The translations under genes and the position numbers were made by a program. Of a DNA stretch of 64,000 nucleotides, positions 34,363 through 59,238 are shown one piece after another. Numbering within the stretch: the first letter of the stretch is position 1; the number at the start of each line of letters is the position of its first letter. Source of the DNA: a virus. Under the pieces are notes generated by a model. It was given only the letters and a program-made list of their open reading frames with translations, was not told the DNA's origin and made no database searches. Location of the stretch: UHGV virus genome UHGV-1410950; one strand, 5' to 3'.

Positions 34363-37300
34363 TTATACGCTCGGCAGGATGATACATTCCACAACGGTCA
34401 TGCCGCTGCCGCCAAAGCCATCGGCGTCCTTAGTCCCCGATTCGTTCACCTTAGTGATGAGGAGGCGGGTATTAGGTGGCAGGATAATTTCTTTTTCCCC
34501 GGTATGGTGCGAGATAGATCCACCACTCGGAAGCGAGCCAGCGCCCGCATAGATACCTTTTACGCCGGGGCCTGCTGTCATTTTGAGGTGAATATTACCA
34601 CTCCACACGTCTGGACTGATAGACGTGGACATAATTGCAGGCTCCATGATGACCTTGCCTACCGACGCTTTCAGCTTGGAGAGATCACCGCTGCCCAGAC
34701 TGAATTTGCGCCCGAACGTGGTACCCGGCGAAATTTCATGGCCCATACCAGACAGCGCCTGCGCTGCTGCTTTCGCTTCTGCGCTTGGGTTGCCCTTCCA
34801 CAGTCCGCTGTTCATCTGCTTATAACTGCTACCAGTATACGCCTGCACGGCCTGTTTTTGTGTCATCGGCAGCTTTTCCCACACTTCCTGTGCTGCTTTG
34901 GCATAAGTGTTTGTGGTCAGCGTGCCAGCCTTGAACGTGGTTTTAGTAATGCCAAGGTCTTCCGGCTCAACAATCCCCGGATGGCCCAGTACCAGCAGGT
35001 TCCCGATCTTGTCTGCATCGTTACCGCTCCAGTTTTCCGGCTTGTATTCTTCGTGCATCGAATACAGCGGGTGATCGCCGCCGATACGGAACTGCTCGGC
35101 TTCATGCCCGGCAAGCTGGCTCTTAATCTCGTTAATCGCCTGCATCGCGTAGCCTTTGATATGCTGCGATGGGTGATCGAGCACTGGCACCTGTCCGGTA
35201 ACAGCTCCGGTGTCTTTGTCAAAGGTTGGCGCGGTCAGGCCGCGAATGGCTTCCGGGTCTCCGGTCAGCGCCGCAGAATAAATGGCCTGCGCCGCGTCGT
35301 GGTTCCCTTTGTTCAGGAACTCTTTGGAGGACGGGCCGGATTTGCCAACGCCAGACCAGTTGAGGAAGTCAGGCGGGGTACTGATTTTCTCCGGCTTGAA
35401 TTTCTGCATTTTGATGATCTTCTCGGCTTCCGGGTACTTCTCAGCCAGATACTCTTTGCGCTTGATGAGCGTTTCCACCAGCTCCTTTTTCGCCTTATCA
35501 TCGCCCGGCCCATACTGGTTGACCATGTGCGCAATTTTGGCGTCGGAGATAGCCAGTACCTTGGAGACAGACGCGGCGATATCGGCCTCAGTCATGCCAC
35601 CGAAGACGGCTGCGCTGTTCGCGTTCATCTTCGGATCCATCAGTGACTCCAGCTCCTTAACGACAGGGCCAAATTCTTTCTTCGCACCCTGCGCACGGAA
35701 CATCAGCGAGCCGCCCGCATCGACGCGGTGAATGGTGCCGTCATCTTTCAGCTGCACGTTGTCTTTCGCCAGCCCCACGACATCCCAGTTACCCAGCCAC
35801 GCATCAACGGCGAAGCCTTCCAGCATCCCCTTGGCCTTCGCCAGCGCTGCATGGGTTTTGGCCTTCTTGATGTTCTCCCACTTCGAGGCAATAGCCATTT
35901 TCCCGTCCTTGGTGACGATCATGGCGTCCTGCGCGGACAGCCCAGCGGCGCTATACAGTTTCGCTGCCAGCACCTCAGCCTTGGCGTGCTCCTCGTTATC
36001 CGGGAACTTCACATACCATTCCTGCCCATCGGCGTCCTTCATTTTCATGCCTTCATTCGAACCGCCTTGGTTGCCCCCGGTCACTGTCCACTCATCGACG
36101 CTGATCGGCTCTTTCTTCTTCCACTGGTACTTTTTGACCTCCATCGGGCCATCAGCGGCAAGGCCATTCTCTGCCGGGTTGCTGGTCGCGGCGGTAGCCT
36201 TCATCAGCTGCGCGACGCCATTCATAGCATAGGTGCCATTCACCTCAGGGTTATAACCTGACTTAACCTTTATCCCATTAGCCATCAGCATCATCGACGC
36301 ATATTGCGCCAGCGCCTTTTTACCCGGCGCGGTCGGGCCATACTCCGTTGAGACCTTAATTTTCATCCCAAACTCGCCATAAATCAGCATCGAACCATCG
36401 GCTTTCTGCATGATGACGCCTTTGGTGCCGCCGCCTTTGGTCAGCTTGGCTTTGAGGTTATCTACATATTTCATGTAGTGATCCTGCTGCCAAGCGCTCA
36501 GGCCAAGCGCAGCGAAGTCAGGCGCTGGGATCTCGTCAGGATTGGCCCTAACCCAGCGCCCGTTTTTCAGGATCAGCATCCCGTTGGCACCCGGCTTCAT
36601 GTCGCCTTCTTTTGGGCCATCGTCGGCCTTCTTCGCATCTTCTTCGGCTACGGTATTCTTGATAGCCGTCAGGATCCCGTCGATAGCCACAGTGGCAAAA
36701 TCGTTGATGGTCAGCACGCTTTTAATGGTGCTGACTGCATCAACCTTGTCCGGGTTGGCGTCGTAGTATTCCTTGCACGCCACCGATGCTTTGACGACCT
36801 TTTGCAGCCCGCTTTTGGTCTCCGCGATGCTCTTGATGTCGTCCAGCAGTTTCAGGTCAATCATTCCCAGATCCGGCGCGGCAGTTTCCGGTGCTGGCGC
36901 AGGCTCCTCAGCTCCGGTGATCTGATCCTGTACAAAGGTCATGGTGCTGATTGCGTAATCAGTCATGCTCATTTTGACCAGATCGGTTCCCTGATTCGCC
37001 ATCAGCGCATACGCGGATTCTTTGACGCTGTTCAGCACAGCCTCTTTCATTTCCTTCGAGTCGGTGTACTTCGCCAGCATCGCCATCGCTGCCAGACCAT
37101 CCAGTGCATCGGCATCCGCCATGCTATCGCCTTTGTAGCTGGCTTTCGGGATCCCCTGCGGGACGCCGTGCATGTTGATGCTGTCTTTCAGTGTGGACTG
37201 TAGGACAGGGATATGTGACACGTTATCGCCTGCGGCCTTCACGATGTCCTGATAGGTGGCAGGGTTGTCGCCTTTCTTCGCCACGTACTCCTGCACAGCC

Positions 37301-40300
37301 ATCAGCGTTTCGAGGTTGTCTTTGGCGTTGTTGAAGACCAGCCCAAGGTCATACATGTTTTTCGGCTTTTCCGGCGCAGCGGTCAGCTTGCTGATAACCT
37401 CAGCCATGTACTCCTTGTACTTATTACCGTTGATCGTGGTGCCCGGCGTCGCGTTCTGCTCATATTTCATGGCCTCGATGAGCAGCTTTTTGCTGTTCTC
37501 ATCCTTCGCCAGTGTTGCGGCGATGGCGTAGCCCTGAAAATCAGTTGCCTCGGTCGAGTAGAAACCAACATCCGGCTTAATTGGCAGATTGAACGGCTTC
37601 CCGTGCTTCTTAAAGTAATCCTGCCCGATTTCAGACGCGGCGTAGACGTGCCCGCTATTCATTTTCAGGATGTTGTCGATAACGGTCGTGTATGCGCCCT
37701 TATCGCCATTGTTGTCCTTGATGAATTCCAGACCGATAGCACTCGCATCATCGCCGTTAGCGCCAGCCAACGCCTGTTTGAGCGCCACAATCTCGCTGCC
37801 CGCGCTGCCATTTGCTGAGGTCTCAGGCATGTCCTGCTGTAAGATCCAGTGCCCGTTATGGAAGACCAGCGTACCGCCTTTACCCTGCTTGGTATCACCC
37901 TCCTGCGGGCCATCCTCTACCAGCCACTTATTGACCTCCTGCTGGTACAGTTTAACCTGCACAGCAGCTGGCTCGGAAAGGTGAAGCTCGCTCAGCTCAT
38001 TAAAGTGCTTGGCGATCACATCAGGATCCGATTCTTTGCCTTTGTGAATTTCTTCGGCAATGACGTTATAGAGGGTCTGCACTTTCGTGCCATAGGTTTT
38101 CACCGTATCGCTGGTTGGTGATACCAGAGGTTTTTCTGGCTCAGTGCCGTAAGTCTCGCTCCACCATTTCCCGTAGGCTTTCTTACCTGCGATAAAGAAT
38201 TCATTTGCCAGCTCGTTAAAGCCATTGTCCTTCATGGCCTCAGCCATCGCCACCAGATGCGGCGCATCGTGACCGTTAGCCGTCATCCAGTCGCCAGCCA
38301 TCGCATCGGCTTGCTTTTCGTCCTTGGCATCTGTCAGCATGTCAAACGCACTTTCCCACAGAGCGTAATCGTTCAGGATCGCTTTCTTCTCCTGCTTACG
38401 CTCATGCTTAGTGGCAGTCTGCTCGGATTTCGCCGCAGCCTGAGACTTCTCGGCCCATGAATCGTACAGCTTCCCGACGCTGGACTCGGAGAAGGCCAGA
38501 TCGCTACCGTAATAGGTAGACGCCTGCTCAATGAATGCCTCGCCTTTTGTCTTCGCCCACTCGTTGAACTCAGCCACATCGGCAAAATCCGGCAGCTGCG
38601 GCTCAGGGGTTGGCGCACGCTCCTGCTTGATCTGCGGTGGCGTCGGCAGGGATTTCACGGAGATATCGCCCAGCTCTTTCTTGGCGGCGGTCACGGCTTC
38701 GATGATCCACGCGGACAGATCAACCTTCTGGAAGGCATCAATCAGGTTCTGGTCATCACGGATCACTGTCACCATGTCGTTGATGTTGTCCACAGCCAGC
38801 GCCCAGTTACCCGCGTTGAGGTCATTCTGGATGTCCTCACAGATGCCGTCGATAAACGCATCACCAGTCTGCGGAGGATTGGAGAAAGTCTTCACTCCCT
38901 CAGGCTTAGGCGCAGCAGCAAGGCCCAGAGACTCCGCCAGATTGACCGCAGGCTCTTTGCCAGCCATTACCTGCTGGTAAACCTCATTCTGCGTGTTGGA
39001 GAAGCCGGAGATATGGCCCCAGTCGCCCTTCTCGTTAACCCACATACCAGAGCCCGGATTCTTCGGATCCGCGACGATGACTGCGCTGGTATTGGTCGGG
39101 TAAACGCCTGCGTCTGGAGTCGTGGACAGCACGCCATTCCACATGTTCTTGATGACGTTTTGCTGCTTCTTGGTCAGGTGATTCGGCTTGCCCAGCTCCA
39201 CCAGCTCGGTCGGGTACTCGCTATGGTGATAGTCGGAAATGTAGCCCAGATTGTCCGGGGTTTTGGTGTTGCCACCAAAGCCGATCAGTTTCAGGTACTG
39301 GCCCGCTTGGAACGGTTTCGCCAGCGGCTCCCCCTTCTTGCTCATAGGCCATGCGGTCGCGTGCCCCATCAGCACTTTCAGGTACGGGTTGCCGTCCTTG
39401 TCATAGGTCTGGATGATCGAGCCAGCAGGCAGGTTAGGCATGTCAGAGATAGACAGCTTCTGGCCCTTTTTGAACTCACCAGCGACAGGCTGATCCTTGA
39501 GCGGCTCGCCAGTCTCCTGATTGTGCCAGCGACCGTCTTTGAAGACCTGCATCCCGTTTTTGCCCATGCGGGTTTCACCTTCCTGCGGGCCTTCCTCAGC
39601 CCGGACGGCTTTCTGCTGCTCAACCTCGGCGCTGGCCTTCTGATCCTTTTCTGCCTGGCTAAACTGGCCCAGCATTGGATGCACGGCGTCTTTGCCGATG
39701 ACCACTTTGATGTCAGGGTAGCCCAGCGCTGCCAGCGCGTTATTCGCAGCCTTGGCGACTTTGAGCCCGTAGGTGTTTTTGCCGTAGGTCATCGCCAGAA
39801 TGCCGTTGATGTTGCCTACTTCGCCAGCGGCCTTGATAGCGGCGATCTGCGCGTTGTAGCTCTTGGCATTCTTAATGTTCTCCGCGACGGCGAACTGGCT
39901 CCAGTCGATAGCTTCCATGGCCTTCTTCGACACGGATGCTTTCGGGGCTGGCTTGCCTTCGGCGGTGTCCGGCTGCGCCGGGGAGGTAGCGATGATTTCA
40001 ACCGCGCTCAATGGGCTCGGCTCCTCGGACTGCACCAGCGGCTTATTCGGATTCTCACCCGTCAGCAGCGCCAGCTTTTGCCCGTAGAGGTTCAGCAGCT
40101 TTTTGCTGTTCGGGGTGATGCCCTTCCAGCTTTTCGCCTTGCTCTTGATAGCTTCCAGCTCCGCCAGACTGGTGGCGTCGATGACCTTCTGAGCCTGCGC
40201 CTCATACGCGGTGCGCACGCCAGTGGAGTTTTTGCCGGATTCAAATTTAGGCATGACGATTTCGCCTGGCTTCGGTGCTTCGGCAGCAGGTGTTGAGGCT

Positions 40301-46843: not shown

Positions 46844-48355
46844 TCAAAAGGCATCGTCATCTTCATCAGGATCCGGCAGGTGCCGATCCTCGGTCTCCTC
46901 CGGGAATTCCTCTCCGGTGTAGAAGTGGACGGCCTTGCGCCCGGTAAGGTTCTGCCAGCGACGAATCGCCACATCTGCGAATCCCAGATCCAGCTCCATC
47001 ACGCGTGCGCATACGCCCATTCGCTCGGCGGCCACCAGTGAAGTACCAGAGCCGGAGAAGGGATCCACCATGATGTCATTGAGGCGCACGGTGTTCTTCA
47101 TCATGCGCTCCCACAGCTCCACGGGCTTCTGCGTCGGGTGCAGGTCGCTGCGGTCAGGACGCGGCACGCTGACCACGCTGCCCAGCATTGACTCCACCTT
47201 GGCGTCGCCTTCCACCCGCATGATGAGATCGCCGTACTGGAAATACCAGTTACCCTCGGCATCCTGTTTGAATGGGCTTGAGTCGCCAAACTCCGCGACG
47301 GTCGTTTGCTTCCTGCCACCGTGCCAGCGGTGCTTGGCACCCTTGCGCCAGCCGTACAGGATTGGTTCATGGATGCTTTGGAAGTCAGCCATGCCCAGTG
47401 TCATGCTGTTCTTCTTCCAGATGACATTCTGGGAGAAGTGGAAACCGACCTTTTCAAACGCCCAGCGCAGGCCATGGGCCATCTTGTCGGAGTGGCTGAT
47501 ATAGGTCACGCCGCCCGGCTGCATCGCGTCATAGGCGCAGCTCAGGACATTGACGAGGAACTGATTAAAGTCCTCCTCGTTTTTCCAGTCGTTAGCGATC
47601 CCGCCAGTGCGCGAGCGCTCGCCTCCGATAGCCTTATCCATGCGCTTATTCTTCTTGCCCACATCGACGTTATACGGGGGATCGGTCAGCATCATGTTGG
47701 CCTTCTCGCCCTGCATCAGCGCCAGCCAGCTTTCCGGCTGCTCAGCATCACCCACGTACAGGCGATGAGCGCCCAGCACCCACAGGTCGCCCGGACGGCT
47801 CTTTGGCTCATCAGGCAGCGGTGGGGCATCATCAGGATCGCTGTCACCACCTCCTCCCTCCATCGGCGGCAGCTTCATGATCTCGTCCAGCTGCTCAGGG
47901 TCGAAGCCGATAACATCCAGATCGTAGTCCAGATCAGCCAGGGCATTCATTTCGATGCGCAGCATGTCCATGTTCCACTCGGACGCCCGGCCCAGCTGGT
48001 TATCCGCGATGATGTACGCGCGGCGCTTAGCCTCATCCCAGCCAGTGCAGTCCAGCGTCGGCACCATGCCAATAGGGATCGGCGTGCCATCCGGGAAAGC
48101 AATTTGCTTGCCCTCGCTGTACAGCTTCATCGCTGCCAGCTGGCGTCCATGGCCTGCCACAATCCCTTGCTCATCGACGAGGATGGCATTAGTCCACCCG
48201 AATTCAAGCATCGACGCGGCGACCTTCTGGACGTGTGCCGGGCTATGGTCATTTGAGTTGTTCACGTAGGGGATGAGGCTATCAACCGGGCGCAGCCGGA
48301 TCATCGGGGGGATCACGTCCAGCCCCAGCATCTTGTTAAAATCTTTATCAGCCAC
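46844..48355 (-). CDS. ParB-like nuclease domain fused to DNA N6-adenine/N4-cytosine methyltransferase (DPPY family)
   Basis: 503 aa with an N-terminal ParB/Srx-like segment and a C-terminal methyltransferase with LTDPPYNVDVGKK (motif IV) and an AdoMet-binding region (MVDPFSGSGTS). Confidence 0.8.
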   Translation of the reverse strand: MADKDFNKMLGLDVIPPMIRLRPVDSLIPYVNNSNDHSPAHVQKVAASMLEFGWTNAILVDEQGIVAGHGRQLAAMKLYSEGKQIAFPDGTPIPIGMVPTLDCTGWDEAKRRAYIIADNQLGRASEWNMDMLRIEMNALADLDYDLDVIGFDPEQLDEIMKLPPMEGGGGDSDPDDAPPLPDEPKSRPGDLWVLGAHRLYVGDAEQPESWLALMQGEKANMMLTDPPYNVDVGKKNKRMDKAIGGERSRTGGIANDWKNEEDFNQFLVNVLSCAYDAMQPGGVTYISHSDKMAHGLRWAFEKVGFHFSQNVIWKKNSMTLGMADFQSIHEPILYGWRKGAKHRWHGGRKQTTVAEFGDSSPFKQDAEGNWYFQYGDLIMRVEGDAKVESMLGSVVSVPRPDRSDLHPTQKPVELWERMMKNTVRLNDIMVDPFSGSGTSLVAAERMGVCARVMELDLGFADVAIRRWQNLTGRKAVHFYTGEEFPEETEDRHLPDPDEDDDAF

Positions 48356-50207: not shown

Positions 50208-50999
50208 CTACTCGCCAGCAGCAAGCGGAACAGCGCATTGATGACTAGCATTAAACGGGTATATCAGCCCGCACTTGTCACAGCACTTTGTCAGGCTGGA
50301 TCCCTGCCAGTGTTGCAGGTTGTTGTTTGGGTTCCACGGGCTCTTTGGATCCTTCCAGTCGAAAGGCTCGCAGAATGATGCAGGTCTCAGCTCGACTGAA
50401 TTACTGGCGCATTGATTTCCCCAAGTATGCCAGCCTTGGAGAGATTCACGCGCGAATAGCTCAATGCGTGGCACATCGCCATACAGCTCCTCGATGCGGT
50501 GGAAAATCTCTTTCGGCTTCTCGGAGTGCTCGCCCAGACAGGAGAAGATAATCTGGCGCACGCTGGCGCTGGCACGCTCCAGACCTTTGCCACGGACGGC
50601 GATCAGGGCGCTTTCCTGATTCTGGCGCGAGTAGTTGCCACCGTTGATTTTTACCTCGGCGTTCAGGAAGTCCAGCAGGTCTTCCCAGTCGAAGAACTCA
50701 GACCTATCCAGCTTGCGGTTAAATCGCTCAGGCGCGTTCTTGTTGAACTTCACCCACGTAAACGCTGTCATTGACCGGACATCGAAGCCCCACGCCTCAG
50801 CCAGTGCCACGGCCTCCTCGGCGTGCGTGGAGGTGTACCACATCACCAGCACGGCATCATCATCAGCCAGCGTCTCCACGGGCAGGCGCTTCATGTCACG
50901 CAGGCTCATGGTCGGGTAGTGGTTCTCAGCCGCCCCATTGCTGATCGTGTTGTTGTACTGCCACGGCGGATCGCACAGGATAACTTTGTACTTACCCAC
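50208..50999 (-). CDS. DNA N6-adenine methyltransferase, MT-A70/Dam-like (DPPW motif)
   Basis: ILCDPPWQYNN near the N-terminus, typical of phage MT-A70-family Dam enzymes. Confidence 0.7.
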   Translation of the reverse strand: MGKYKVILCDPPWQYNNTISNGAAENHYPTMSLRDMKRLPVETLADDDAVLVMWYTSTHAEEAVALAEAWGFDVRSMTAFTWVKFNKNAPERFNRKLDRSEFFDWEDLLDFLNAEVKINGGNYSRQNQESALIAVRGKGLERASASVRQIIFSCLGEHSEKPKEIFHRIEELYGDVPRIELFARESLQGWHTWGNQCASNSVELRPASFCEPFDWKDPKSPWNPNNNLQHWQGSSLTKCCDKCGLIYPFNASHQCAVPLAAGE

Positions 51000-52001: not shown

Positions 52002-52478
52002 TTAATCCTTGAAAAAAGTTACCCAGTGGGTGTTTGCCCGGATGCCGGACGGATGACCGAAAGCGGGTTTCATTTCCGCCAGTTTGAGCAGCTCGCGGGT
52101 TGGCACATGCAGCTCATTCCATTTGAAGATCAGCGTGCCGTGCGGCTTGAGCACGCGCCATGCCTCAGCGAATCCGGCGCGGATGTCATCGCGCCATGTC
52201 TTCTTGTTCAGGATGCCGTACTTCTTGCCCTGCCAGCCGTTTGGCCCGCACTTGAGCAAATGAGGCGGGTCGAACACGATGAGGCTAAACGTGGCGTCGG
52301 CAAACGGCAGCGCCCGGAAGTCAGCCACGATGTCGGGATGGATTTTCAGCTCCCGGTCATCGCATAAGATATGCTCCTCGTCCCGGATATCCATGAAGAC
52401 GACGCGGGGATCCTCCCGGTCGAACCAAAACATGCGCGAACCGCAGCACATGTCGAGAATGGGTTTGTTAGTGGTCAT
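52002..52478 (-). CDS. Small SAM-dependent DNA methyltransferase-like protein (DPPH motif)
   Basis: ILDMCCGSR (motif I-like) followed by LIVFDPPHL (motif IV). 158 aa. Confidence 0.6.
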   Translation of the reverse strand: MTTNKPILDMCCGSRMFWFDREDPRVVFMDIRDEEHILCDDRELKIHPDIVADFRALPFADATFSLIVFDPPHLLKCGPNGWQGKKYGILNKKTWRDDIRAGFAEAWRVLKPHGTLIFKWNELHVPTRELLKLAEMKPAFGHPSGIRANTHWVTFFKD

Positions 52479-54994: not shown

Positions 54995-55539
54995 TATTGC
55001 GCCGGGGCCTGCGCGTCACCATCAAGCGGGTGCGCAGCAGGATCAGCGGTCGCGCCAGCTCCTACCAGCTCGTTTTCCGGCCCAGCCACTTCCGGCTTTG
55101 GGGTGGCAACATCTGCCGGGTTAGCCTGCCAGCGACGATAGAGATCCATCGCTTTGGCCTGCTCCTCTGCACGCTTCTGGAAATGCTCGCCAAACTCGCG
55201 CGGGTAGAACCAGACATCATCGATCAGGTTGCCGATGCCAATAATCTGATTCCCCTGAATGGCGATACGGCACGCCTGACCATTCAGCGCTTCCCACGTA
55301 GCCACTCCAACGGTGCTCAGCACGCGACCGATGTACGAGATACCGAAAGCAGTCTGCTGGTCTTCCTGCTCCATTGACTGCGCATCAGCGTGCAGGATGT
55401 AGCCGCCAAAGTTAACGCCCAGATTAGCCGCTTTCAGCTGAATGGACGAATTCATGGTAGAGCCATCCCATCCCAGCTGGGTGTTAACGATACGGGCGTT
55501 GAGCACCTCAACCGGGCGCTGTTCAGTGGTTTGTTCCAT
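54994..55539 (-). CDS. Hypothetical protein (181 aa)
   Basis: ORF-track entry. No confident family assignment. Confidence 0.4.
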   Translation of the reverse strand: MEQTTEQRPVEVLNARIVNTQLGWDGSTMNSSIQLKAANLGVNFGGYILHADAQSMEQEDQQTAFGISYIGRVLSTVGVATWEALNGQACRIAIQGNQIIGIGNLIDDVWFYPREFGEHFQKRAEEQAKAMDLYRRWQANPADVATPKPEVAGPENELVGAGATADPAAHPLDGDAQAPAQ

Positions 55540-55548
55540 GGTAAATCC

Positions 55549-55911
55549 TTATCGGGTTTGTTTTGAATGGTCGAGCTCGGCAAGCGCCTCACTCATCTTT
55601 TCGAGTGCTTCAATCATCTGCCCACTGGCTGACAGTGGGCCGCGCGTGCTGGCCTGTTCTGTCAGCAGCTTGCAGGCATCAACAACCTTCCTGATAGCTG
55701 GCAGGGAGCCCATAGACAGCATCTGCATGAAATAGAACTCCCCCGGCATGATGGTTGACAGCATTTCGCCGCTGCCTGCCGGATCTCTGCGGCCTTCTTC
55801 CTTACGCTGATAATTGCGAAGGGTATGGCCCAGCAGGTCAGCCATTGCCTGCTGCGTCATGCCTGCGGCAATGCGGGCCTCACGTACTTCTGCCCCGGTG
55901 ATTTTAATCAT
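55549..55911 (-). CDS. XRE-family (Cro/CI-type) HTH transcriptional regulator
   Basis: The N-terminal segment (EVREARIAAGMTQQAMADLLGHTLRNYQRKEEG) is a canonical HTH_XRE. Confidence 0.7.
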   Translation of the reverse strand: MIKITGAEVREARIAAGMTQQAMADLLGHTLRNYQRKEEGRRDPAGSGEMLSTIMPGEFYFMQMLSMGSLPAIRKVVDACKLLTEQASTRGPLSASGQMIEALEKMSEALAELDHSKQTR

Positions 55912-55957
55912 TGGTGTTTCCTGCTTAGTTCAAAGGTACGGCAAGTGTAGCACGTCA

Positions 55958-56428
55958 TCACTGACGCAATCCAGCATTCTGGTAGTTTGCATACTTGGCG
56001 TCGGTCGCCATTTCATCCAGCATCGCCCGCAGGCCGCTGACGCCGTGACGCATGATCCCAAAGTGAAGGGCGGCGTGCAGGAATACATCGGCGTTGTTGT
56101 CTCCTTGGCGATTGACGCGGGGGATGATGGTCTTGCTGTTAGACATCCCGGTATCGACGGGGATGATGACCTGCCCGCCCAGCTGGGGAGCACGCTCGCC
56201 CGGCAGCATGTCGCGCAGCCAGCGCTTACACGCAATGGCCTGCTCCAGCGCCTTTTCAGCCGTGCGGTGCTCGCTGACAGTGGCGGCGTGGCACAGTGCC
56301 CCGTTAACCATGCCGGACAGGATGACGCGACGGCCTTTGGTCGCCACAATCAGATCCGCGTAACCTTCGGCCTTGGCCTGCTTCACGCACGCGGCGAGGT
56401 GGTGTTTGCTTGGTGCGCTCTTAGCCAT
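55958..56428 (-). CDS. Hypothetical protein (156 aa)
   Basis: ORF-track entry. Confidence 0.4.
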   Translation of the reverse strand: MAKSAPSKHHLAACVKQAKAEGYADLIVATKGRRVILSGMVNGALCHAATVSEHRTAEKALEQAIACKRWLRDMLPGERAPQLGGQVIIPVDTGMSNSKTIIPRVNRQGDNNADVFLHAALHFGIMRHGVSGLRAMLDEMATDAKYANYQNAGLRQ

Positions 56429-56708
56429 TCTCGCGGTCTCCTCGCATTGCCAGAATCATATCGTGTGCGAACTCGGCACCTTCCAGCGTCTTGAGATACT
56501 TCTCAGCTTTTTCCTGGTCGAATTCATCAAATACCTTATCGCGGTTGCCTTCGCCCACTTCCCCCTCAGGGAATGAGAAACCCATATCCAGCTCAGCATC
56601 CTGAGCCATAACAATCAGGGACAGCTTTGGGCGGTCGTCATCATCGAATGACTTCTTAACGAGCAGCTGGCGACCGTGCGCCTCGAATACTTTTGCAAAA
56701 CGTTCCAT
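56421..56708 (-). CDS. Hypothetical acidic protein (about 95 aa)
   Basis: Internal start MERFAKVFEAHG with an AAGGA RBS. Confidence 0.4.
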   Translation of the reverse strand: MERFAKVFEAHGRQLLVKKSFDDDDRPKLSLIVMAQDAELDMGFSFPEGEVGEGNRDKVFDEFDQEKAEKYLKTLEGAEFAHDMILAMRGDRENG

Positions 56709-56781
56709 GGGGAATCCTTGGTTGTCGGTTGGTGAAGTTTTTATTATACGCCATAGGTGACACGCCAACAATGACGCATAA

Positions 56782-56803
56782 TAAAAAAGCCCCCGCAGGG
56801 GCT
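56782..56803 (-). terminator. Intrinsic terminator after the adhesin gene (approximate coordinates)
   Basis: Minus-strand hairpin AGCCCC-TGCG-GGGGCT followed by T6. Confidence 0.5.
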
Positions 56804-56820
56804 TCTAATTACAGATCGGT

Positions 56821-57975
56821 TTACCAGCCGTATGAAGCCCCGACGCCGACTACAAAGTTATGCTGGGTGTCGTTGGACACGGACGCCTTAATAACGGTGT
56901 TCTGAGAGGCGCGGGCAGAGAAGCCGACAGCCAGCGCAGATTCGCCATCAGTGTTACCAGCGCCAGCGCCGATAGCAAAGGTCTGGTGCTCCAGTACCTG
57001 CGGGATGTTTGCCATGGCGGCGACGCCTGCGATACCTGCTGACGCACGTTTGCGGTTGTCATCGATCTGCTTGTTCAGGTCGGCAAACTTGCTATTGGTC
57101 TGCGATTCCAGCCCCTGAATGCGCTGCTCATGGTTGGCAATATCGGCGGTGTTCTGGGCTACACGCTTATTGGTCGCATCCAGAGCCTGACGGTTCGCCT
57201 CAGAGTGGGCATACGCCGCATCAGCGCGAGACTGCGCATACGCGCCAGTGTCCTGCGCCTGTTTCACGCCAGCGCTCAGCGTGGTGAACTGGCTTGAGCG
57301 GGTGGAGGTCTCAGCCGCCAGAGCGGAATCCTGACGCTGCTGGTCTACAGCAAAATCAGCCTGGTTGACTTTGGTCGCCAGAGCATTGGTGTTGCTGGTA
57401 ATGCGCAGGTCATGGTCAGCCAGTGCCGCATCATGCTGCTGGTCGGCAGCTTTGCGGTCATTGGTCTCATTGGTAAGAGCCACGCCGTTACCCACTACGC
57501 CTGCCAGTGCGGCATCCGCTTTATCACTATTCGTGGAGATCAGCGCATCCTGATCGTTGTCGCGGACTGCCTGTGCAGCCTTATCGGCATCATACGCGGT
57601 CTGGTCAACCTTATCAGCCAGGCCATTCAGTGCCGCCTGCGCATCGGTCTTGGCAGAGCCAGCCAGATTCAAAGCAGAGCTCGCTTCCTGCTGTGCGGCG
57701 TCCGCTTTCTGGTCAACGGCGATCACACCCAGCTTGGTGCTTTGCAGGTCGGCATCCACACTGGTGATGCGGTCGCCCAGTTGAGTATCGCGGGTTTCAG
57801 AGTCCAGCTTGTTCTGGGTGATTTGGTTCTGGTGATCGTTGATCAGGTCGCTGGTTACATTTGCGCGGGCGTCCTGAATGCGGTCATATGCAGACGGGGA
57901 CGGATTCGGAGCAGCAATCGCTGCGGAAGTGGTGGCAGTAAAAGTCAGAGCGATAGCCAGCTTGGTCAGTTTCAT
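56821..57975 (-). CDS. Trimeric autotransporter adhesin (YadA/Eib-like) moron
   Basis: Signal peptide MKLTKLAIALTFTATTSAAIAAP. Long coiled-coil stalk with repeated Q/A/D-rich heptads. C-terminal YadA-type beta-barrel anchor ending ...NFVVGVGASYGW. Confidence 0.7.
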   Translation of the reverse strand: MKLTKLAIALTFTATTSAAIAAPNPSPSAYDRIQDARANVTSDLINDHQNQITQNKLDSETRDTQLGDRITSVDADLQSTKLGVIAVDQKADAAQQEASSALNLAGSAKTDAQAALNGLADKVDQTAYDADKAAQAVRDNDQDALISTNSDKADAALAGVVGNGVALTNETNDRKAADQQHDAALADHDLRITSNTNALATKVNQADFAVDQQRQDSALAAETSTRSSQFTTLSAGVKQAQDTGAYAQSRADAAYAHSEANRQALDATNKRVAQNTADIANHEQRIQGLESQTNSKFADLNKQIDDNRKRASAGIAGVAAMANIPQVLEHQTFAIGAGAGNTDGESALAVGFSARASQNTVIKASVSNDTQHNFVVGVGASYGW

Positions 57976-58151
57976 TTAAAGCCTCATTATTAGGTGGTTT
58001 ATTGGGTGTTTCCCGTGTTGACGAGGAGAACTATACGGCACGCATGACGCGTCCGCAATAGCGCAATGATAAATTTTCCGTATTATTCCGCTGGAATGAT
58101 TCAGGGGACTGATTGGAAAGGAGATTTATTTTAGCCCCCGTGGGCTGGGGG

Positions 58152-58374
58152 CTAAAGATTAGCGCGGGATGAATGGCTTCTGGGTGAAGACCTCAGCCTG
58201 AGGGAAGTCAAAAGAGACCTCCGGTGCCATTGCCTGAGAAGGCAGTGACTTGATGTGCTGGGATCCATCTGGCAGGAATACGCCAGCAAGGTAACGCGGC
58301 ACCTGAATGACGTTTGCAGCCAGTGCATAGCCCGGTGGTGCTGCGGGATTAACGGTATCGTCGATTGTAGCCAT
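58152..58374 (-). CDS. Hypothetical small protein (71 aa)
   Basis: ORF-track entry. Confidence 0.3.
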
Positions 58375-58419
58375 GGGTAAAAAGCCCTCGTTATGTCTGA
58401 GGGCTCCAGTATGCCGTCA

Positions 58420-58641
58420 CTACCTCCGGCGATTAATCTCATGGTACAGCGCAGCCATAAAAATACCGATGGCGACGGGCCAGCACAGCATGACCATCAG
58501 CAGCGTCTGGGGTGGCATCTTCTTCCCGGCGATCCCCATTTTGTCTGAGATGAAGTCAATCATGATAACTGCTGCGCCTATCAGCAGCGCGACAGCACCG
58601 TACACTTGCAGCTTCTCCAGCCAGAATTCACTCACTGCCAT
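58420..58641 (-). CDS. Small membrane protein (73 aa)
   Basis: Two hydrophobic helices. Confidence 0.35.
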   Translation of the reverse strand: MAVSEFWLEKLQVYGAVALLIGAAVIMIDFISDKMGIAGKKMPPQTLLMVMLCWPVAIGIFMAALYHEINRRR

Positions 58642-58829
58642 GGCTCCTCATACCAGGTGGAAAGCGCCACATATGCGGTGACGGGCCAGAGCGCCGCCTG
58701 AATGAGCAGGAAGCCCACGGCTTTACGCTTCGGGTGCATACGCGGCACCCATTTGCGCAGGCCCAGCAGCAGCACCACTAAAAAGCCAGCCCAGTACAGG
58801 GCCAGCGATACGATGATTTCAGTCTGCAT
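58632..58829 (-). CDS. Small membrane protein (65 aa)
   Basis: Two hydrophobic helices. Overlaps the next gene. Confidence 0.35.
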   Translation of the reverse strand: MQTEIIVSLALYWAGFLVVLLLGLRKWVPRMHPKRKAVGFLLIQAALWPVTAYVALSTWYEEPWQ

Positions 58830-59238
58830 TGTGCAATGCCTTCCCGATCCGCTCGATGCCTTTCAGCGCCTGCTCCAGATTGTCAAAGCCTGCGGCCTTC
58901 ACCATCTGGTCGATGCGCTCAACGGCGTCTGTCATCTGGTTGCCCATGTCCAGCAGCAGGATAACCAGCTCAGGCCGGACGATATCGACAAATTGCCGCA
59001 CCGCAGCACGCCCGGCTAACGTGTCCTGCCAGTCTCCGTGGATGGATGACAGCACGGTGGCCGCCACGCGCATCTTCACCTCATGCTCCGGCGTGATGTC
59101 GGTCATCGGCGCACGGGGTTCAGCTTTGTGAATCGGTCGCGCGGCTTCGCGTTGTCCACGATAGCTTTGACGATGGCCTGCGCTTCTTCTCGCGTTCTTA
59201 CGTTTTGCTGGCTTGAGGTGTCCGATTGAGACTGGCAA
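58819..59238 (-). CDS. Hypothetical protein
   Basis: ORF-track entry. Confidence 0.3.
   Translation of the reverse strand: MPVSIGHLKPAKRKNARRSAGHRQSYRGQREAARPIHKAEPRAPMTDITPEHEVKMRVAATVLSSIHGDWQDTLAGRAAVRQFVDIVRPELVILLLDMGNQMTDAVERIDQMVKAAGFDNLEQALKGIERIGKALHNAD

Follow-up and report, generated by a model that had tools for sequence, protein, structure and literature searches.

The 64,000-nt stretch of the virus genome UHGV-1410950 that we analysed (the window) carries on its minus strand, at positions 56821..57975, a gene whose product is, on the evidence of its sequence, a trimeric autotransporter adhesin (TAA) made of a stalk and a membrane anchor without a head. The gene (hereafter the adhesin gene) lies in a metagenomic myovirus genome of ~96 kb that is 92–97% identical to two isolated phages, Enterobacter phage phiT5282EW (95.5 kb; 97% identity) and Escherichia phage ECML-606-1 (95.0 kb). 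More distant relatives of the carrier are Yersinia phage fHe-Yen8-01 (a sewage phage of 92.5 kb that has a tail sheath), Aeromonas phage ST4 and Bordetella phage PHB04. A literature search under the names of the three closest phages returned nothing. An earlier reading of the same letters (the original prediction) had described the gene as a phage-borne, Eib/YadA-like moron that serves lysogenic conversion or virulence. The gene and the parts of its product are located as follows.

56821..57975, minus strand: adhesin coding sequence, a headless trimeric-autotransporter-type protein of 384 amino acids (open reading frame list, Pfam, PHROG, homologues).
57913..57975, minus strand: codons of a predicted Sec signal peptide, residues 1–21, with cleavage after A-I-A (sequence features, conservation among homologues).
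57010..57891, minus strand: codons of a helical coiled-coil stalk, residues 29–322 (AlphaFold2 secondary structure, heptad harmonics).
56824..57003, minus strand: codons of a YadA-type membrane anchor, residues 325–384, with four beta strands (Pfam PF03895, PDB sequence matches, Foldseek).

The open reading frame (ORF) runs from an ATG to a TAA stop codon at 56821–56823 and is matched by PHROG 17426 'adhesin' (E=2.8e-59). The gene is certainly real, since 420 homologues were found (best E=1e-231), and an identical protein (P0002) is encoded on two 96,049-bp metagenome contigs (JGI 3300045988 and an identical ENA contig), the window corresponding to the opening 64 kb of the JGI contig. Its N-terminus, MKLTKLAIALTFTATTSAAIA|APNPS, reads as two lysines, a hydrophobic core and an A-x-A motif, and is conserved in 30 of the 34 aligned homologues. 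The predicted signal peptide holds no cysteine and would thus be of the Sec, non-lipoprotein kind. The AlphaFold2 model of the adhesin is a monomer built on the homologue alignment, with a mean predicted local distance difference test score (pLDDT) of 74.6 that falls below 50 at residues 1–24. It is helical from residue 29 on, and the helix, interrupted by four breaks of 2–4 residues (121–124, 161–164, 203–204 and 244–245), extends through residue 322 up to the anchor in this monomer, the trimer being predicted only. The hydropathy of the stalk shows power maxima at periods of 2.3, 3.5–3.75 and 6.65–6.7 residues, i.e. the harmonics of a heptad.

At the C-terminus, Pfam YadA_anchor (PF03895) matches residues 325–384 over all 60 profile positions (E=5.7e-12; 46 bits against a cut-off of 22.7), and the model places four β-strands at 333–382. 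The sole significant PDB matches by Foldseek are the anchors of Hia, AtaA and YadA (E 1e-6 to 9e-4; target TM-score 0.64–0.82), and the solved structures with a sequence match are these same three anchors together with a weak profile match to the P22 gp26 tail needle. The last residues of the adhesin are ...V-G-A-S-Y-G-W, W384 being nearly invariant across the alignment. The signal peptide, coiled-coil stalk and C-terminal YadA-type anchor ending in W that the original prediction had recognized were thus all recovered; the profile search that it proposed returned the anchor, with four β-strands in the model.

Neither YadA_head nor YadA_stalk/neck (formerly Hep_Hag and HIM), nor any other globular domain, was detected in the adhesin by Pfam at E≤1, while the same search does detect head and stalk/neck in headed relatives such as protein P0065. 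Three hallmarks of type Vc autotransporters are present (YadA-type anchor, predicted Sec signal peptide, C-terminal aromatic residue), and the usual head, which is common but not obligatory, is missing. The likeness to Eib and YadA put forward in the original prediction turned out to be confined to the anchor. Entries for EibD (we take PDB 2XQH and 2XZR to be fragments of it) were absent from the matches to all PDB chains at E≤1, whether the single sequence (phmmer) or a 34-sequence profile was used. Because it has no head/neck domain and no detectable EibD similarity, we conclude from these searches that the adhesin is not an Eib protein. A group of headed E. coli proteins (P0058–P0066, 379–409 amino acids) was considered as possible Eib proteins, through which the adhesin would have been tied to that family, and this was rejected: P0065 matches the heads of SadA, BpaC and YadA, not EibD.

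The minus strand carries almost all genes of the window. From 64000 down to 41000 (23 kb) these are small ORFs, several of them for DNA methyltransferases, in one run that includes the adhesin gene; this run is followed by a 2,251-amino-acid protein and then by a tail fibre, a gpA-type terminase, portal, capsid and tail genes. Together with this run, the adhesin gene precedes the structural module, the nearest tail gene being 24 kb or more away, and the phage has ordinary tail fibres within that module. Its placing 'among early genes' in the original prediction is reasonable, though it is read from the run of small same-strand ORFs with methyltransferases. For the flanking ORFs Pfam and PHROGs were uninformative except for an HTH_3 domain in ORF 55549..55911, and a PADLOC search of eight neighbours gave one weak match only (E=0.0014), to this helix-turn-helix (HTH) ORF.

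Neither an integrase nor a repressor module nor a partition system turned up in the window, and the same is true of the other 29 kb of phiT5282EW (97% identical), which encode a primase, helicases, a single-stranded-DNA-binding protein, a RecE-like exonuclease, an endolysin and a tail fibre. Phages ST4 and PHB04 do carry an integrase between a Dda-like helicase and the lysis genes (L012, 33293..34462 and L017, 36771..38084, respectively), that of ST4 adjoining a tRNA-Lys, whereas this slot is empty in phiT5282EW (L008, 1686 onward) and in a near-identical 95,985-bp contig (L018, 11114 onward), where the helicase is directly followed by lysis genes. One further place with mostly identical neighbour genes is included in the result for the 95,985-bp contig and presumably belongs to the contig of the window itself. 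Scanning metagenomes with the Dda-like helicase yielded no confirmed locus. Since ST4 and PHB04 have an integrase and the slot of the enterobacterial clade is empty, these genomes indicate that the ability to integrate has been lost or gained within one phage family. When the structural region was searched for in 5,426 complete E. coli genomes and 72,556 plasmids (PLSDB), it matched none of them. The relatives were isolated as free phages, and the one case for which a source is on record came from sewage. With no lysogeny module, an empty integrase slot and no genome or plasmid matches, the clade looks virulent, or at least non-integrating, as far as its gene content tells. The carrier, which the original prediction had taken for a prophage, is therefore not demonstrably one, and the gene is probably not lysogenic-conversion cargo.

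Within the clade the adhesin gene appears to be an old resident. It occupies the same position, with colinear flanks, in phiT5282EW, ECML-606-1, fHe-Yen8-01 and two contigs of 88–93 kb, and was present in all six enterobacterial members examined. In the three most distant members the alignable part of the adhesin is 57–63% identical, against 37–61% for its neighbours, and in one relative with the gene at the same position the flanking proteins are 38–57% identical. The GC content of the gene (58.2%) compares with 55.6% for the region and 56.2% for the window, and its GC content at third codon positions (0.64) lies within the range of its neighbours. Because the position is the same throughout the clade and the GC content is that of the neighbours, the gene appears to have been gained at the base of the enterobacterial clade and kept since, and is not recent cargo. 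The gene is missing from ST4 and PHB04, which also lack its flanking genes, so that there is no clean empty site to compare. Conservation among the variants of the adhesin extends to the signal peptide, the tip of the mature protein (PSAYDRIQD) and the last 150 residues. The middle part of the stalk is built as a mosaic of cassettes, seen as indels in the alignment, with total protein lengths of 307–590 amino acids; in phiT5282EW a 61-amino-acid insertion is flanked by SD(K)ADAALAGV repeats.

The gene is framed by its own predicted transcription signals, all of them on the minus strand.

58130..58156, minus strand: 10-bp GC-rich hairpin just past the stop codon of the upstream gene (fold, relatives).
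58030..58058, minus strand: predicted sigma-70-type promoter, TTGCGG-17 nt-TATAGT, 55 nt 5′ of the ATG (conservation).
57982..57985, minus strand: Shine-Dalgarno sequence GAGG, 6 nt before the ATG (sequence).
56785..56806, minus strand: intrinsic terminator with a 9-bp GC-rich stem, a 4-nt loop and U6 (scan and fold).
56743..56771, minus strand: candidate restart promoter, TTGTTG-17 nt-TATAAT, for the next gene, whose ATG is at 56708 (sequence).

The predicted adhesin promoter (58058..58030) is the single match to TTGC-N19-TAYAGT in the window. The pattern TTGCnn-17-TAyAGT is retained in seven of the eight aligned upstream regions, from phages and plasmids, though their flanks diverge; the eighth, from fHe-Yen8-01, reads TTGCGC-18-TAGTAT. 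A stricter sigma-70 scan of the intergenic region found no promoter, the –35 hexamer agreeing at only 3/6 positions; as this element is too weak for the scan, the promoter call rests on conservation. Around the ribosome-binding site, the window, phiT5282EW and the plasmid copies described below share the sequence TGAGGC. The terminator begins 14 nt past the adhesin stop codon and is strong (–20.2 kcal/mol; z=–3.98; none of 200 shuffled sequences as stable), as the original prediction had it. On the 5′ side, the hairpin at 58156..58130 (–17.8 kcal/mol; z=–4.96) lacks a clean U-tract here, and the equivalent hairpins of the relatives are followed by TTTAT; it may insulate the adhesin unit on this side. 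The spacer of the restart promoter resembles that of the adhesin promoter: when GACGCGTCA-N5-GNCGTATAGT was searched for at ≤3 mismatches, the restart promoter was the only hit in the 64 kb besides the adhesin promoter itself, against a chance expectation of 0.02. Given the upstream hairpin, predicted promoter, terminator and restart promoter, the adhesin gene is, in its predicted layout, an insulated promoter-gene-terminator cassette and a moron in anatomy. Of the phage-borne TAA with moron layout that had been proposed, the terminator stands and a predicted promoter is added to it, while the base composition does not deviate as that of a moron might.

In phiT5282EW an ORF for a 178-amino-acid homing endonuclease of HNH/AP2 type (L001, 8114..8650; equivalent to 56713–56820 of the window) lies right after the adhesin gene, with an overlap of 11 bp, and replaces the terminator and restart promoter of the window. 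The plasmid copies carry an HNH_3 ORF at the same spot 3′ of the adhesin gene.

The last ~100 residues of the adhesin are near-identical to those of headed TAAs encoded on chromosomes and plasmids of E. coli, Enterobacter and Salmonella, and 238 bp of the gene are 92% identical at the DNA level to a TAA gene on an E. coli plasmid. These two observations point to ongoing recombination with host TAA genes. Protein P0065 (397 amino acids) shares 64% identity over 276 residues and is like the adhesin in stalk and anchor; such headed TAAs, among them also the plasmid-encoded P0055 (466 amino acids), have a YadA_head repeat and YadA_stalk/neck in their N-terminal part, which in the phage protein consists of signal peptide and coiled coil only. 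When chromosomal relatives were scanned for, the matches, in Enterobacteriaceae, covered just the C-terminal half, apart from a single full-length one of 37% identity. The latter (L021, 6001..7209) lies on a 61.5-kb contig of an Enterobacter sp. metagenome-assembled genome (JALCNW010000018.1), which may represent another phage lineage with the same kind of gene.

A colinear block of ~3.7 kb (58879..55099 of the window, minus strand) was found on plasmids and plasmid contigs at 69–75% nucleotide identity (L009–L011 and L032, the last being AP022423.1, 5486–8799). It comprises two small membrane ORFs, a 71-amino-acid ORF, the promoter region, the adhesin gene, the HTH ORF and a 181-amino-acid ORF; two ORFs at 55958..56771 are missing from it or swapped for the HNH ORF. 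The plasmid contigs carry genes for IncFII RepA, MobA, a resolvase and Tn3, and the complete plasmids with the block are a mobilizable Klebsiella plasmid of 12.4 kb and an E. coli plasmid of 56.5 kb. The plasmid copies are 99.8% identical across genera. Capture of the block by small mobilizable plasmids in several genera fits a stand-alone function at the cell surface.

The two small membrane ORFs of the block (58420..58641 and 58632..58829, minus strand) overlap one another just before the adhesin cassette and encode 73 and 65 amino acids, each with two hydrophobic segments. Neither had a family match, and their homologues were undetected in fHe-Yen8-01 and the two 88–93-kb contigs; both accompany the adhesin gene on the plasmids.

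Genes of this kind are not confined to the present clade. A tblastn search found the anchor in 74 phage records, mostly of lytic phages, and we examined four unrelated lytic groups: the Kuravirus phiEco32 (gp119), the N4-like Erwinia phage S6 (gp046), the jumbo Cronobacter phage GAP32 (GAP32_424) and, from the Ackermannviridae, Salmonella phage SKML-39 (gp201). In all four, the product combines a signal peptide, a fibrous passenger without YadA_head or YadA_stalk and a YadA anchor, and the gene lies away from the structural module. In the better-annotated loci of S6 and GAP32 it is found no more than ~1 kb downstream of genes for small membrane proteins or lipoproteins (S6 gp044 and gp045; GAP32_423), an arrangement paralleled in the window, where the ORFs at 58420..58829 lie within ~1 kb upstream of the adhesin gene. 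Homologues of yadA in virulent Salmonella phages and in phiEco32 have been reported before as not being near tail genes, their function being left open (Moreno Switt et al., 2013; PMC3728262). Short, headless TAA genes with a signal peptide are thus known in lytic phages, and the present gene is another instance. Our literature search returned no functional study of phage TAAs, only genome descriptions.

The reading that we prefer, with moderate confidence, is that the adhesin is a head-less fibre of type Vc whose synthesis in the infected cell is directed by the phage, i.e. a lytic-conversion surface protein. Host RNA polymerase would transcribe the cassette from the host-type promoter, a ribosome-binding site being predicted as well, and the predicted Sec signal peptide would direct export to the periplasm. 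There the β-barrel assembly machinery (BAM) would assemble the four-strand anchors into a trimeric 12-strand barrel, and ~290 residues of coiled coil would be threaded out to form a rod of ~40 nm, lacking a globular head, on the outer membrane of the host. As the clade shows no lysogeny module, the protein would act during lytic growth, in a 'lytic conversion' as with Llp of phage T5, and not in the conversion of a lysogen. The role we favour is that of a surface coat limiting access to receptors, so that superinfecting phages would be excluded and less progeny lost on debris. Host TAA genes would be the source from which the ancestor of the enterobacterial clade acquired the gene, which would still be recombining with them. 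The homologue in fHe-Yen8-01 is annotated 'receptor binding protein / phage particle associated protein', meaning that it was detected in a phage preparation, which suggests expression in lytic infection; this is a lead only, as the primase and methyltransferases are also 'particle associated' in that record and the label is not specific.

Several points weigh against this reading. We infer the choice of exclusion over adhesion, and PADLOC finds no known defence family for the adhesin. To our knowledge, blocking of receptors is not known for a generic fibre coat; Llp of T5 acts through specific binding. An arms race would be expected to make a binding tip variable, yet it is the mid-stalk that varies, the mature tip PSAYDRIQD being conserved. 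Early timing is deduced from gene position and the predicted promoter only, and both the trimeric state and the display at the surface are predictions. As to lifestyle, ~5 kb of the window's own contig were judged from close relatives only, and lysogeny is not strictly excluded, in view of the distant relatives with an integrase and the many unannotated ORFs.

Next most likely, though unlikely in our estimation, is that the adhesin lets infected cells stick to neighbouring cells or to surfaces, as an adhesion or aggregation factor through which progeny would be released beside new hosts. TAAs as a class mediate adhesion and autoaggregation, as is established for YadA, EibD and UpaG; the modelled rod of ~40 nm would probably, by our estimate, project beyond the O-antigen layer, and the tip is conserved across phage and plasmid variants as it would be for a fixed ligand. 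However, the head domain, the usual binding module, is missing, and autoaggregation by TAAs is usually homotypic, so that infected cells would be joined to one another and not to fresh hosts. The Eib-like cargo envisaged in the original prediction, expressed from a prophage and conferring immunoglobulin binding and serum resistance, is improbable. It would account for a TAA gene in a promoter-gene-terminator layout, related proteins do occur on plasmids and chromosomes of Enterobacteriaceae, where a role in adhesion or serum resistance is plausible, and distant phage relatives have an integrase; but the protein has neither head nor neck and no similarity to the solved EibD passenger at E≤1, no member of the clade was found to have a lysogeny module or to be integrated or plasmid-borne in the 5,426 E. 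coli genomes and PLSDB, and its relatives were isolated as free phages.

We regard as quite improbable that the gene is a neutral or selfish passenger, a host TAA fragment gained by recombination and without a role for the phage. The anchor is indeed near-identical to those of host TAAs, and mobile elements adjoin the gene in relatives (the HNH endonuclease of phiT5282EW and the plasmid copies), yet every clade member retains an intact ORF with signal peptide, promoter and ribosome-binding site although the neighbours have diverged to 37–61% identity, the composition matches the genome, and analogous genes exist in unrelated lytic phages. Very improbable, and rejected on account of signal peptide, anchor and gene position, is a virion fibre or receptor-binding protein. 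The record note of fHe-Yen8-01, the filing of PHROGs 17426 and 26246 under 'tail' and the weak profile similarity to the P22 gp26 tail needle, also a trimeric coiled coil (E=7.5e-4), speak for it. However, virions assemble in the cytoplasm, and the conserved signal peptide, predicted to be cleaved, would take the protein out of it; the C-terminus is a complete β-barrel anchor whose last residue is aromatic; a long distance separates the gene from the structural module, and it has a promoter and terminator of its own; the same gene occurs on plasmids without virion genes; and the 'particle associated' label is also given to the primase and methyltransferases.

The lytic-conversion surface protein that we prefer might not be peculiar to this clade. 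Tentatively, several unrelated lineages of lytic phages of Enterobacterales (this clade, Kuravirus, N4-like phages, Ackermannviridae and jumbo phages) could display a head-less TAA through Sec and BAM as a general device of lytic conversion, serving exclusion and the sparing of progeny from debris, or else tethering, with later domestication by plasmids. Genes with a YadA anchor occur in at least 74 phage records under the labels 'adhesin', 'tail protein' or 'virulence gene', and these labels affect the safety assessment of therapeutic phages. The present locus is a clean case for study, with a delimited unit, isolated relatives, a variable stalk and a plasmid copy. Were remodelling of the cell surface true, it would add a new class to the few known phage exclusion and lytic-conversion factors; were there no benefit to the phage, the gene would be an ordinary recombinant of host adhesin genes.

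Other genes of the carrier deserve mention. The 2,251-amino-acid ORF (34363..41118, minus strand) carries at its very C-terminal end an ADP-ribosyltransferase exoenzyme domain (PF03496, E=4.9e-9), and its homologue in fHe-Yen8-01 is annotated as particle associated; by analogy with Alt of phage T4, a packaged and injected effector, it may be packaged and injected too. The methyltransferase ORFs of the early region (46844..48355, 50208..50999 and 52002..52478, minus strand) comprise a fusion of a ParB-N domain with an N6_N4 methylase, an MT-A70 methylase and a small ORF whose methyltransferase matches are all faint, and probably serve anti-restriction self-methylation. The replicative helicase of the near-identical 95,985-bp contig (L018, 2424..5207) is 927 amino acids in length and contains an intein and LAGLIDADG homing-endonuclease domains, and that of phiT5282EW is 576 amino acids in length, without intein or LAGLIDADG domains.

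Among the known systems closest to the adhesin are the phage genes labelled 'adhesin' or 'agglutinating adhesin' (PHROGs 17426 and 26246), i.e. phiEco32 gp119, S6 gp046, GAP32_424, SKML-39 gp201 and those of phages FSL SP-058 and FSL SP-076, all of which are likewise found outside the structural modules. Only the C-terminal 100–190 residues can be aligned with these other lytic-phage adhesins, at 52–65% identity, and the passengers differ: that of phiEco32 is collagen-like, and GAP32 and SKML-39 have longer repeat stalks; a conserved N-terminal tip of its own and the cassette structure are features of the adhesin of this clade. With the type Vc proteins YadA, Hia and AtaA it shares the signal peptide, a coiled-coil stalk running into a four-strand anchor and the terminal aromatic residue. 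Unlike them, it has neither head nor neck, is short (384 amino acids) and is encoded by a phage without a lysogeny module, whereas their genes lie on a chromosome or virulence plasmid. The EibA, C, D, E, F and G proteins of lambdoid prophages are also phage-borne TAAs with a YadA-type anchor, inserted in a promoter-gene-terminator style. The EibD structure papers reportedly describe Eib proteins as having a YadA-like head, a neck and an immunoglobulin-binding stalk, whereas the adhesin has no head or neck and no match to the solved EibD fragments, and its carrier is not a lambdoid prophage. Llp of phage T5 is a small lipoprotein that binds the FhuA receptor specifically, and was reportedly described by Decker and co-workers in 1994 as the product of an early gene that brings about 'lytic conversion'. 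Like Llp, the adhesin would be an envelope protein made by a lytic phage in the infected cell, a likeness of mode and not of ancestry, as the two share no homology.

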